A stretch of DNA of 64,000 nt from Tubulanus polymorphus. Lineage: Eukaryota > Animalia > Nemertea. The translations under genes and the position numbers were made by a program. The notes under the pieces were generated by a model. The model searched no databases and had not been told where the DNA came from. It worked only from the letters and a program-made list of their open reading frames with translations. The stretch is from contig NC_134033.1 of the NCBI RefSeq assembly GCF_964204645.1, positions 6,596,231 through 6,660,230 on the forward strand, written 5' to 3'. Each line of letters starts with the position of its first letter. Positions within the stretch are counted from its first letter, which is position 1. This document shows, one piece after another, positions 28,101 to 37,100 of the stretch.

Positions 28101-31100
28101 ACTGAGAATGCATTATTAAAACATAAATAATTATGTGATAATAAAGATTTTTTCAAATTAATAAGGCCAACAAAAAAGATTGTAAGTTGAAATTTATTAA
28201 TCATAAATTTAAAAATATAGTACCATTGTAATTTATGGGGATTTTGAATCGTTGAATAAAGAATTAACTGATCAAGATAGAAAAGAAATATATAACAAAA
28301 AGCAATTTCTAAAATCAATGAACAAAGGAAATGAATTAAATGAAGACATAATTCAAGACCCACCAATCATAAATACAATTAAAAAATTCATCAAAGAGCT
28401 GCTGCTTATGGAATTTGTATAAAATCAAATTATCCTGAATTATATGAAAGTCAATATATTTCTTTTAGAGGTGAATATGTAGTAAATGAATTTTGTAATA
28501 AAATAATTGAAATAGAAAATGATTTTGCAAAATTATTAAACAAAAATAAACGAATAGTTATGACAAAAGAAGATGAAATTGATTTTAATTATGCAACTCA
28601 TTGTCGTAACTGTGAAAAACGTTTTTATTCATTTGATAAAAAAGTTAGAGATCATGATCATTTAGATTCATAATATCGTGGAGCTGCTCTTGAAGATTGC
28701 AATTTACAAGCTAAGAAAGTTAATTTCGTACCAATATTATTTCATAATTTATCAGGCTATGATACCCATCTATTTATAAAACAATTATCAAGAAAATTGG
28801 GTGCAATTAATCAAGAAATAGAAGAATATAATGCTATGAATGGTGCAAATGTAAGAAAATGTGATTCTAAACTATTAGCTAAGACATCTGAAAATTATAT
28901 TTCATTTCAATTTGGTTGCATTAGATTATTAGATTCTTCTAGATTTTTAGCAAGTTCATTAGATAATTTAGCAAAAAGTTTAGTTGATAATGATTTTATA
29001 ATAACTCGACATTATTATCGAAATGAACAAAATTTTAAATTTTTGAGATTGATTTAAAGGTGCAATTCCTTATTCATTTTATAAAACACACGATGAATTT
29101 TATGCAACAGAATTATTAAAAGAACAATTTTATGATCAATTAAAAGAGGAGTATGTGAAAGACGAAGTGTTTAATAGAACATTAAATATTTAGAATAATT
29201 TTAAGATAAAAAATCATGGTGAATTTGTAGATTTATATTTAAAATCAGATGTTATGATATTGGCTGATATATTTGAAAAATTTAGAGATGTCAACTTGAA
29301 TCATTTTAATGTTGATCCCTGTTATTGTTATTCAAGTCCTGGTTTAACCTGGCAATGTGGTTTAAAATACACAAATGTAGAATTAGATTTATTAAAAGAC
29401 CCATACATGGTTTTATTATTTGAAAAATAAATTAGAGGTGGAATTAGTGGTGTTATGGGAGATAGACATTTTAAAGCAAATGATGAATATAAGTTATTAT
29501 ATATTGTCGCTAATAATTTATATGGTTGGGCAATGATGCAACCCCAACCATTTAAAATTTATGATGAAAAACTAATTGGGAAAGCGCAATTATGAGCTTA
29601 GAAGATGAAGCACCAATTGGTTATTTCTTTGTAGTTGATCTAGAATATCCTGATAACATTAAGTTTAAAACAAGAAACTTACCATATTGCCCAGAACATT
29701 TAGCTGTAGATGATAGTTATTTAAGTGAATACCAGAAGAAAACAAAACCGAAATATATAGATTTTAATTATAGAAAAATATATAGATTTTAATACTCAAC
29801 AGAGAACCATACAAAAAACAGATTTTGAAAAACATCTCTTCAAATTAATGAATAATAGTTTTTATGGAAAAACATGTGAAAATATTAGATATAGAAATGA
29901 TATTGAATTAGTAAACAATTCTGAACGATTAAGACATTTACAATCAAGTCCTAGATATTTAGGAAATAAAAGATTTGAAGATTATTTAACCGCGGTAAAA
30001 TTAAAAAGAACGTCAATGAAATTTAATAATCCTATATTCATTGGTTCAAATGTTTTAGAAATATGAAAATTATCAATGTATGATTTCTACAGGGTGTCCC
30101 ATTAATTACTATACATAAAGAACTGCCTGCCATTTTCAAACCGCTTGAGATAAATCAGCCAAATCTTCAGGAGAGAGGAACTACAACAATACTTTTCACC
30201 ACAAAAAATTACTTGACTAAAATCAAATTAGTTTACGAAAATATGCTGGATGGGAGAACCTTTCAATTTTATAACATGATTCAGTCTATTGTTGAAATTT
30301 CTCTGTACATTGACAATCATCTGTGTTATTGCAGTTGTTTCTCTTTAAATCATCAATAGTTTCTGGCTTGTTTTGGTACACTGTCATTCTGCTAGCCCCA
30401 CAAGTATCAAGTGGACTTAATTCAGGCGAGTATCAGGCCCAGTCGTTTGCAGTTTGGAGTGCTGAGATATAATCAGTTGCTAGGAAATCACTAAGCAAAT
30501 TACCATAGCAACCACGATGATAATCAAAAAGTACCGTTAAATTCTATCATTTGGTGGAAAATCGAAACATTTCATTAAGAAATGTGGAGGATACAGGCAG
30601 TTCTTTATGTATAGTAATTAATGGGACACTCTGTATTATAATGTTTTTTCAACCACTTTTTGGGGAAAAACATATTGAAATATTATATTTTGATTCTGTA
30701 ACGGCTGATACCCCAATATTATTAAAATACAATAACTAAATATTAATTAGAAGAATTTCAGAAATAATTCCAAAACAAAATGAACTTTATATTTCATATA
30801 GTGAAAAAGAATTAATACAAATAAATGGATTAATGGATGTTTGGACAAGAAATGGATGGAAAAAATTAATGAATATTATTAGGCATAAAACAAATAAGAA
30901 AATGTATAGAGTTCGAACTAAATTAGGATACGTTGATGTTACTGAAGATCATAGTTTAATTAAACAAAATGGTGATGAAATAGAACCAACTGATATAAAA
31001 ATTGGAGATGAATTATTACATAAAATATTTTTCAAAAGAATGAATCATATGTTATTTGATGAAATAATTTATAATATTTATAATAGAGAACCTGAAACAT

Positions 31101-34100: not shown

Positions 34101-37100
34101 ATACTGACAGTTACATACTAAAAATCAAGACAAATGACATAACAAAAGATTTAAAAACATTAAAGCATCATTTTGACTTAAACAATTATCCAAAAGATCA
34201 TGAACTATTTAGCAATGATAATAAAAAAATTCCTGGTAAATTTAAAGATGAATTAGGGGGCGATGAAATGATTGAATTTGTTGGGATAAGAAGTAAAATG
34301 TATAGTTATAGAACAAAAGATCATGAAGCTAAAAAGTTAAAAGGAATAACAAAACATGTGGTTGATAAACACATAGAATTTCAAGATTATATAAAGTGTT
34401 TATACAACTCAATTGTAATGAAACATAAAATGAATCGTTTAAGATCAGAAGATCACGAGATGTACATTAATGAAGTTGAAAAAACTAGTTTAAATCTGTT
34501 CGATGATAAAAGATATATTTTGGGTGATGGAATAAAAACATTACCTTATGGCGATTAAAAAAGAAAATCAATATCATCATACTCGAAATCACTATTGGCT
34601 TCTTCATTTTCATTTAATTGTTTAGGTTCTTCCATTTCATTTTTTCTCATTTAAATTAAGTTCTATATTATTCCACATTGCATCTAGCTCTCTTTGTTTC
34701 TTTTTGTTCGTTAATTCATCAAATGGAATTATAATATCGATGTTTAAAAAATTTACAATCTTATTTAAACAGAATTCATAATTAATTGAATCTGTTATTT
34801 TATTATCCACATAATATTTTAATATGTTTGTGAATGTTTCTTTTATATTTCCCATATCTTCTTTTGTTAATTTAGGTTTTTTTTATAATAATCGTTAAAT
34901 GATCTTTCTTAGTTATTTCACCATTTTTATTTTCTATCATTTACATTTTTTCAAGCCATTGCTTATATTCTGGTGTATGATCTTCCATAGAAAATATCTT
35001 AACAATTTCATCTAGATATTTCAATTTTGGTTCTATAGAAACTATATATATATATATATATATATATATATATATATATATATATATATATATATATATA
35101 TATATATATATATATATATATATATATATATATATATATATATATATATATATATATAGTTTTTTCATCACCCCATAAATTTCTTTGCAATCCACATTCA
35201 TTACAAAATATCACAGAATCTTCTTGTCTTAAGTACACATAAATACATTGTGGGCATTTTTTTTCAAGTGTTTCTTCATTATCTGGTAACGTTTTCTCCT
35301 ATTTCATGTTTTCTAATATATTATTTTTTTATTTCATTGAATTCTGCTTCAAATTTATTAGAAATTTTATCTATATGTGCTTTACGAAATTGATGATTTT
35401 CCCAATCTTCTATATTTTCAGGGCTATATATCATTCGACAAGGCTCACAGAAATGATCTTTTATATCATAAGAAAGGTCTAAGAAATAAGAAAGGTCTTT
35501 TCCAAATAATCTCAGGTTCAGTTTCAACAGAATTATTATTACTTTCGTTACTATCAACATTAACCGTTGAGTCATTAATTTTACACTTCTCTAAATGTTT
35601 TTTTAACATAATTTCTTGAGAATGATTTATTACAATTTGGGCAGTTTATTTTAGGGGGTTTATAATTTTTATCATGTTTTTCATAAGTCGAGGCATATTA
35701 CTTTTTCTTTGAAGTTCACCACAAATTTCACATGCTATCTTCTCATCCATTTATTTAAGAAAAACTTTATTAAAATTAATTTTTAATGGTTCGAGGTAAT
35801 TTTTTTGTGTTATAAATAATTGTTGAATTAAAAGAAAATAGAATATCTGTTGATTCTAGAAAACTTACAAATTATAAATCACATAATTTACTATTACAAT
35901 TAGATAGAGAATTTAAGAATTGTGTTGATTTGAAATTAGTAAATGTAAGTTTATGTAATTCTTTTTACAATATATCGGATAAAAGTTTTGATCATTAAAA
36001 ATATTAAAAATAAAAATAAATGGGTTCATCTTATTCTAACACCAGGATTATATAATTTAGAAACATTAGCGCAAGAAATTAATAGAAAAGCCCGGTTGAA
36101 ATTAGGCGGTGATGCTGGATTTAATATTAAATTTTTTGAAAGTGAAAGTTCCGATGAAATTAAAATAAAGTTTGATAATGAAAATTAATATGCTTTCAGG
36201 GTAAAAAAAACCAATAGCTAAACTGTTAGAGTTACTCCAGATAATATTATCTTAGGAAACTACATGAAAGGTAGCTCGAATATAATACCTTTCACAAATT
36301 TTTATATTTATTGCAATTTAATTGACCCTGTAAAAACTTTCGAAGCAAGTAAAGATACAATTTGTAATTCTAGTATATTAAATATTTTACCATTAGAAAA
36401 TGTTAAACAATTTGGAACGCAAATAAATTATAATTTAGCTGAATGTGATTTCAAACCTTGTATTCCAAAATTTAATAATTTTAGATTAGAAATTAGAAAT
36501 CATAATGGAAACTTAATTGATTTAAATGATTTTCCTGTAATTTATGAATTAGTTATAAGATGTAAAGAATATTTTTTCACTATATAAATGAATATAACAG
36601 TAGGACCGAGTATATGTTTTGGATTTGATTTTAAACGTGAGAGAGAAATGAAATATAACATTAATGATGTAATAACACATATTAAAAATATTGCATTTTC
36701 TAATGAAACAACATTAGAATATGAAACAACAATAAATAAAGAAACTTTTAATGTAGAAAAGATTACTGATTTAATTAGAGAGTCTTTAGGATTTTATGAA
36801 TTAGATGAAGATTTTATTATTAATGATATTTAAAAAATAATGACTGAAATATATGAAAATGAAACTAATAATATGATAAATGTTGAAATAATTATAACTA
36901 AGATAACTAATTATTTTGATGATAGTAATTTTTTTTCTAAATAAATGGCCGATCAGAAGTGGATAATAACTGGTTTATATAATGGAGCATTTTTATCAGT
37001 CGGAACTGTTGGTTATACAATGGTATGAAAAAAAGTATTTAAAATGGGAAGTATTAATGTTGATAAATTTGATATCAATGATATTTTGAAATTAACATTA

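Follow-up and report, generated by a model that had tools for sequence, protein, structure and literature searches.

Homing inteins in motif C of family B DNA polymerases (PolBs) are known from giant viruses (Nucleocytoviricota) and archaea, at a site that we take to be the one named pol-c. Green et al. 2018 listed 67 viral DNA polymerase inteins, and the text of their survey describes metazoan genomes as being without inteins (PMC5784728). Deeg et al. 2018 described a motif-C PolB intein in Bodo saltans virus and proposed that intein endonuclease activity is used as a weapon between competing giant viruses (PMC5871332). Here we analyse a stretch of 64,000 nucleotides from a chromosome of the nemertean Tubulanus polymorphus, referred to below in its entirety as the window, in which the catalytic motif C of the protein-primed PolB (pPolB) of a decayed Polinton is split by an insert that is very probably a decayed member of a Polinton-specific family of homing inteins, whose intact members are likely to splice and home.

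The pPolB inteins resemble those of giant-virus PolBs in the YxD/TDS insertion site, the length (~335-365 aa), the two LAGLIDADG motifs and the FNxGFPLI..KN end. Unlike in the giant-virus case, their exteins cannot be aligned to giant-virus PolB, the inteins form a separate clade, and their carrier is an integrating element transmitted through an animal germ line. The motif-C inteins of archaeal PolBs (Thermococcales and Methanocaldococcus; loci L039-L046), presumably of the Tli Pol-2 type, occupy the same site (YAD/SV[TS]G...HN/TDG), but they share only 23-35% identity (E 1e-11 or weaker), are ~390 aa long and are set apart by a long branch of their own. Fungal nuclear homing inteins (VMA1/PI-SceI, PRP8) have the same architecture and fold (PI-SceI, E 1e-10) and the same inferred cycle of splicing and homing in a eukaryotic nucleus; they differ in being 11-13% identical and in residing in single-copy host genes, whereas the carrier here is a multicopy viral transposon of an animal.

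Nuclease domains have been reported from Polinton polymerases before. Jeong et al. 2023 described HNH and VSR inserts in Polinton pPolBs, in a main text that contains neither "intein" nor "LAGLIDADG" (PMC10748475), and Krupovic et al. 2024, apparently citing that study, state that homing endonuclease domains occur in the pPolBs of polintons, "suggesting" invasions by inteins (PMC11161782). Like the window intein, the HNH and VSR inserts are nuclease domains that move between lineages within Polinton pPolBs, but the relevant passages describe no splicing domain in them, whereas the window family combines a full predicted Hint fold with LAGLIDADG motifs, interrupts motif C itself and is found in both filled and empty allelic states. 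Two further papers mention inteins only generally in their relevant passages (PMC12220804 and PMC5718144). In the open-access literature we found no description of a Hint/LAGLIDADG intein either in pPolBs or in Polintons of animals; an entry that has passed without comment might exist in the supplements of Jeong, Krupovic and Green, in subscription papers, or in Repbase or InBase. The element is of a known kind, a motif-C homing intein, and what appears to be new is the class of host protein (pPolB) and the genomic setting.

An intein splits motif C of a Polinton pPolB

Three-frame translation of positions 30570-31700 and 33930-34570 showed that motif C of the pPolB is divided into ILYFD (ending at 30694) and TDSY, between which lies an insert that starts at 30695 with SVTADTP and ends at 34102 with GFPLILKN. 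The split gene and the elements nested in it are as follows.

27390..30694, + strand: N-extein of the pPolB, decayed (several frame breaks and stops), ending in ILYFD with the first Asp of motif C
30090..30633, strand not assigned: small non-autonomous element of 544 bp within the N-extein, with inverted ends and a TA target duplication
30695..31643, + strand: 5' part of the intein, with Ser1, block B TEDH and LAGLIDADG motifs 1 and 2; two stops and two frame breaks
31644..33975, strand not assigned: non-autonomous DNA transposon of 2,332 bp nested inside the intein
33985..34102, + strand: 3' part of the intein, with block F VYDL, FNCGFPLI and the terminal Lys-Asn
34103..34558, + strand: C-extein of the pPolB, beginning at the +1 Thr (TDSY) and open to its stop

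All residues expected of a class-1 intein other than the penultimate one are present, namely Ser1, TEDH (30941-30952), the Asp of VYDL (34040-34051), the terminal Asn and Thr+1. LAGLIDADG motif 1 lies at ~31128-31151 (FFMGDGS near 31131) and motif 2 at ~31456-31488 (FYAADGS near 31468), and both catalytic aspartates are retained. The first piece of the intein matches the TIGR01445 intein_Nterm profile above its cut-off (E 3e-9), and the 5' part matches LAGLIDADG_3 (E 1.6e-4). In-frame stops at 30737-39 and 31212-14, frame breaks near 31130 and near 31450 and the nested transposon interrupt this reading frame, so that the window copy is a dead fossil of a homing intein. The limits of the intein, its splicing and LAGLIDADG motifs and its lesions (the transposon, two single-base frameshifts and two in-frame stops) had been given in the original prediction, made from the letters of the window, and were confirmed.

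The decayed copy can be compared piece by piece with an intact relative. Its four pieces line up in order along the 354-aa intein that the pPolB P0005 carries intact (54-73% identity per piece in tblastn), and when read through, with an X at each break, it is 62% identical to that intein over 356 columns (E 6e-156), a resemblance that on alignment is far beyond chance. Among 21 positions that are invariant in its relatives, 19 are kept, one falls on a break and one is different. In the exteins, the N-extein is 31-58% identical per piece to P0005 (tblastn) and matches Pfam DNA_pol_B_2 on two fragments, while the C-extein is 59% identical to that of P0005 and 43-52% to those of three other pPolBs. 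No BLAST match was obtained between the window extein and giant-virus PolB exteins, which together with the PF03175 assignment upholds the earlier view of the extein as a protein-primed polymerase.

Intact relatives belong to a Polinton-wide family

When the first piece of the window intein was used as query, 109 longer proteins were found, the best two being pPolBs at 66% and 61%. The full P0005 intein matched 1,252 proteins, and the best 120 of these comprised five pPolBs (P0005, P0013, P0009, P0149 and P0150), 114 RNA-primed PolBs (PF00136) and one topoisomerase II. Each of the five pPolBs carries an intact intein of 337-354 aa at D/S...N/TDS. The window intein is 62%, 45%, 45%, 41% and 40% identical to these five, and 36-41% identical to the best inteins of RNA-primed PolBs. 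Because its closest relatives are other pPolB inteins, the window copy belongs to a Polinton-wide intein family and is not the product of a single jump into its own lineage, a point absent from the original prediction; five other pPolB clusters hold intact copies. The same junction was found in the fragments P0006, P0008, P0014, P0015 and P0281 (the last a protein of 167 aa, at 71%) and in locus L026. Of the four loci that a motif scan of metagenomes yielded, L026 alone is a pPolB; its intein contains two stops and no other genes lie next to it, so that it shows no intact copy within an element. Viral contigs scanned with full-length P0005 gave no match.

The endonuclease and splicing residues are strongly conserved within this family and its relatives: Ser1, T-x-D-H, both LAGLIDADG aspartates (D151 and D261) and one conserved Lys do not vary in any of the 73 aligned sequences, and PF14528 is above its cut-off in all five intact pPolB proteins with inteins. 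The fold was taken from an alignment-based model of the intact P0005 intein (pLDDT 93, pTM 0.92), a single-sequence model reaching a pLDDT of only 40. Its top 11 matches in the PDB are homing-endonuclease inteins (TliVMA, PhoVMA, PI-PfuI and PI-SceI; best E 2e-17), followed by I-DmoI, and a sequence search of the PDB with P0013 gave 0 matches. A Hint fold is thus predicted for the family from the model of this one intact relative.

Because Hint proteins are abundant in animal genomes and pPolBs with nuclease inserts are known (PMC10748475), it could be asked whether the insert represents a Hint domain of Hedgehog type, or a nuclease domain that does not splice, such as the HNH and VSR ones of nematode, oomycete and mollusc pPolBs. 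We regard this as extremely improbable, since the family has no Pfam match to the Hedgehog Hint family, no Hedgehog protein stands among the listed structural matches of the P0005 model, where the top ones are all homing inteins, and, as described below, empty alleles lack exactly this block. Moreover, the insert splits the catalytic D-T-D, so that the polymerase could not work without its excision. The profile and structure matches likewise favour the LAGLIDADG intein of the original prediction over a Hedgehog/Hint domain.

In addition, the same intein superfamily was observed in type II topoisomerases (P0007, P0128 and others), probably of giant viruses, at TDQD/TDGS and TEGD/SAAT. These sites mimic the D/TD motif of the polymerases, and P0007 apparently has three inteins.

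Filled and empty alleles in the P0013 cluster

The 90% identity cluster of P0013 has 136 members, of which 15 were listed, and the counts given here rest on those 15. Seven are filled and six empty, one ends before the site and the remaining one is a protein of 129 aa. A block of 346 aa is present in the seven and missing from the six, which are otherwise near-identical pPolBs: the exteins of filled and empty alleles are 95-100% identical upstream, while only 5-6 of the 10 residues on each side of the site match. Fixed differences between filled and empty alleles are found at 6 of 20 positions at the site versus 4 of 1,171 elsewhere, and these four all lie within 44 residues downstream, so that all ten fall between -7 and +44. 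The empty alleles show three types of site sequence (QYFDTDAM, HYTDCDSM and HYGDTDAM), and among five of them (the more divergent P0127 being omitted) 6 of 20 positions vary at the site versus 37 of 1,171 elsewhere. Judged from these alignments, the clustering of differences at the site would be the pattern expected from co-conversion during homing, from survival of empty alleles resistant to cleavage, or from both. In two of the empty alleles, P0120 and P0122, motif C reads D-C-D and not the conserved D-T-D, which may be a variant that escapes homing at this site.

It is conceivable, though unlikely, that the family splices but no longer homes, and that inheritance is vertical, with the filled and empty P0013 alleles representing two ancient subfamilies that ordinary recombination has mixed. 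Filled and empty alleles do differ in their flanks far more than a recent clean insertion would leave, and divergence of intein and extein is similar within the alignable pPolB group (see below). On the other hand, unused homing endonucleases are known to decay, whereas here both LAGLIDADG aspartates and the conserved Lys are without exception retained; the fixed differences are all confined to the region of the site; and P0009, a pPolB that can hardly be aligned with the others, holds an intein 45% identical to that of the window.

Several points weigh against the reading of the window insert as a member of a splicing and homing family that is carried by Polintons of animals. The penultimate His of class-1 inteins is absent from the window copy, which has Lys; this position is also Lys in P0009, Ser in P0005 and His in P0013, P0149 and P0150, and Lys is the common state among the giant-virus relatives of the pPolB inteins. 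The Pfam profile Intein_splicing passes its curated cut-off in only one of the five intact proteins. As for the alleles, the P0013 copies are related, so Fisher p-values overstate the significance of the clustering, and the small listed share of that cluster limits the counts; for the lineage of the window itself, the 15 contig joints listed out of 70 included no empty allele. Leaving P0009 out of the pPolB intein group was not rejected by the approximately unbiased (AU) test (p 0.23), so transfer between pPolB types rests mainly on the gap between intein and extein identity. The hosts of the intact pPolB intein copies may not be animals. Finally, neither Polinton terminal repeats nor a 6-bp target duplication were found by repeat search or by blastn of the flanks.

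Shared ancestry with giant-virus inteins and the direction of transfer

For the more careful of two phylogenies we used 50 rows, picked by score from 165 extracted inteins, with near-identical members of the P0013 cluster omitted. The six pPolB inteins form one clade (support 96/94), within which the P0009 intein groups with those of the window and P0005 (99/92). The exteins of P0009 share at most 21% with other pPolBs, and across the comparisons with P0009 and with giant-virus PolBs, whose exteins gave no BLAST match or at most 21% identity, inteins are 36-46% identical. Within the alignable pPolB group of the window, intein and extein identities are alike (62 vs 58-59%, 45 vs 43-51% and 40 vs 42-48%), which suggests old acquisition and long residence.

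With archaeal rooting, the pPolB clade is sister to a 35-row group that holds the giant-virus inteins (81/94); the outgroup branch is very long (2.5 changes per column). Nesting the pPolB clade with 13 giant-virus inteins costs only 1.9 log-likelihood units and is not rejected (AU p 0.45), and those 13 share the C-terminal pattern FNxG-[FY]-x-LI with the pPolB inteins. A quick midpoint-rooted tree of 81 rows had placed the pPolB clade among giant-virus inteins; that nested reading was withdrawn once the archaeal-rooted tree had given a sister position. The RNA-primed neighbours of the pPolB inteins are giant-virus enzymes. Among IMG/VR loci with the shared C-terminal motif, 13 of 15 are labelled as giant-virus metagenome-assembled genomes (MAGs) and all 15 have the intein at YGD/TDS; the protein P0172 is 100% identical to one giant-virus MAG locus (L013).

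From these comparisons it is well supported that the pPolB inteins and the giant-virus motif-C inteins share a common ancestor, in line with the earlier expectation that the nearest outside inteins would be in giant-virus PolBs and that the YxD/TDS site would be that of giant-virus and archaeal enzymes. The claim that an intein moved between a large virus and a Polinton is supported as to shared ancestry and not as to direction. Transfer from virus to Polinton is somewhat favoured, because the viral members greatly exceed the others in number and diversity and one group among them shares the C-terminal pattern; the trees are compatible with a sister as well as a nested position.

The opposite or a shared origin, in which the Polinton clade would be sister to the giant-virus motif-C inteins, or their donor, both deriving from an older intein of archaeal type, is possible but doubtful. 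The sister position outside the giant-virus group and the long residence indicated by parallel intein and extein divergence in one pPolB group speak for it. Its rooting nevertheless depends on the very long archaeal branch, the nested alternative is scarcely worse in likelihood, the 13 giant-virus inteins share their C-terminal end with the pPolB inteins, and giant-virus members far outnumber pPolB ones (114 vs 5 of the best 120).

Other donors were also considered. A phage donor was dropped, there being one weak partial match among 50,697 phage records. A search of GTDB for a prokaryotic donor returned 65 loci. Full-length matches reached 33-38% at best, and four of these have exteins that match giant-virus PolB and so probably come from viral contigs binned wrongly. 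Two archaeal MAGs, one of them Promethearchaeota, have PolBs whose motif-C inteins share 37-38% identity with that of the Polinton (L029, positions 3001-3999, and L032, positions 3001-4008); these branch far from the pPolB clade and group with viral, not Thermococcales, inteins. The two loci could be viral contigs or an Asgard link.

The carrier Polinton, its nested elements and its host

The pPolB lies in an AT-rich block at ~27.1-46.6 kb of the window, which is a Polinton as judged by its pPolB, retroviral-type integrase and packaging ATPase (PF03175, rve and Pox_A32). The remaining features of the block and its right flank are:

40924..42009, + strand: fragments of a probable double-jelly-roll major capsid gene (weak Pfam Capsid_N match, E 0.002, below the cut-off)
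43346..44472, + strand: fragments of a Polinton integrase with chromodomain (Pfam rve E 3e-9, Chromo E 2.5e-4)
44473..44907, + strand: packaging ATPase, A32-type (Pfam Pox_A32 E 4e-10)
47185..47604, + strand: host sulfotransferase exon (Pfam Sulfotransfer_1), ~0.5 kb to the right of the Polinton

The capsid fragment had no match in a protein atlas search, a minor capsid candidate at 35.9-36.6 kb gave no hit, and no Polinton protease was found among the open reading frames (ORFs) scanned. The Polinton is decayed and bordered by other insertions, with Gypsy elements adjoining the block on the left. Ten matches of the sulfotransferase exon comprise seven from Tubulanus polymorphus at 73-83% and three from other animals at 38-42%. 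Because these matches are animal and the best are nemertean, the host is an animal and most likely a nemertean, which agrees with the animal host first proposed.

The larger nested transposon (31644-33975) is flanked by a 9-bp target duplication without mismatch (31635-43 / 33976-84); its terminal inverted repeats are ~230 nt long and match at 214 of 230 nt, and by these features it is presumably Mutator-like. The second nested element (30090-30633), in the upstream extein and unmentioned in the original prediction, we take to be Tc1/mariner-like by its inverted repeats and TA duplication. In four of four public runs (one organism, one study) contigs cover the insert, and some span the 5' extein-intein junction. 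The larger element is bridged as absent by contigs in three of the four runs and the smaller one in all four; contigs from these runs also cover the larger one, with identities that vary. Since the runs contain at most 0.26 of the sampled words, these contigs represent related copies and not the window copy itself; covering the insert in all runs, and in part spanning its 5' junction or bridging the nested element, they show that the insert is not an assembly artefact.

It is very unlikely that the Polinton is foreign to the animal germ line, whether through a mis-join or because a virus from a symbiont or from prey was assembled together with the host DNA. Its terminal repeats were not located, and the junction with the host is known from the assembly and not from a spanning long read. 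However, the element is riddled with stops and carries two nested non-autonomous transposons, the larger of them present in contigs of the same runs, and it sits ~0.5 kb from an animal sulfotransferase exon and beside Gypsy elements.

Other features of the window were noted. Inside the Polinton, 38977-40584 is an open reading frame of 535 aa without Pfam match, and there are several small ORFs predicted to be membrane-anchored. Positions 41942-43170 and 8240-9289 are inverted copies (78-89%) of an element with internal tandem repeats of ~154 nt, the former splitting the Polinton between its capsid and integrase genes. At 19284-26021 lies a full-length Gypsy long terminal repeat (LTR) retrotransposon that is apparently a recent insertion; its LTRs are near-identical, its gag is PNMA-like and its pol of 1185 aa is intact. 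Another Gypsy element, at 2686-7870, has gag, protease, reverse transcriptase and a Baculovirus-F-like envelope gene (E 2e-14) and is errantivirus-like. AT-rich tandem arrays of 92 nt and 55 nt at 1537-2700 are possibly a subterminal repeat of another Polinton-like element.

A model for the intein cycle and its implications

With the window copy read as a relic of a Polinton intein family, the following cycle can be proposed for intact members. The precursor pPolB would be inactive, since the insert splits the catalytic D-T-D. By the class-1 pathway, splicing would begin with an N-O shift at Ser1, aided by the block B TxxH and the block F Asp, followed by transfer to Thr+1 and cyclisation of the Asn, which would rebuild D-T-D and an active pPolB. 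Homing theory predicts that the LAGLIDADG domain would cut empty pPolB alleles of co-resident or co-infecting Polintons, and that the cut allele would be repaired from a filled copy with co-conversion of the flanks. A single crossing between the RNA-primed and protein-primed classes of PolB, with a giant virus as the most likely source, may have brought the intein to Polintons, where the family then stayed long, with at least one further move between distant pPolB types, while the animal germ line would have been reached as cargo of an integrating Polinton.

A wider interpretation, to which we give about even odds, is that Polintons own an old and still mobile homing intein family. Having crossed from one class of polymerase, RNA-primed or protein-primed, to the other, it would jump from one Polinton type to another distant one, be passed on through animal germ lines and fuel an arms race, with empty Polintons escaping cleavage by altering the sequence on either side of the catalytic D-T-D motif and even inside it (D-C-D in two of six empty alleles). 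On that view, no natural intein and no system of intein homing would have been known from animal chromosomes before.

Inteins of free iridoviruses that infect animals are already known, and the intein described here resides in a viral gene and not in a host gene. With that caveat, a bona fide homing intein would be present in an animal chromosome, carried by an endogenous virus, in contrast to the absence stated in the text of the 2018 survey (PMC5784728), and the 2024 suggestion of intein invasions of pPolBs (PMC11161782) becomes a concrete family that can be tested. The family also indicates that an intein can cross between polymerase classes that are no longer alignable, by way of the shared motif C alone. 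Such a crossing would mark a meeting of Polintons and giant viruses in one cell and bears on a possible giant-virus-linked phase of animal Polintons, and the filled and empty alleles may offer a natural system in which homing, and escape from it, can be studied among the copies of a multicopy element.

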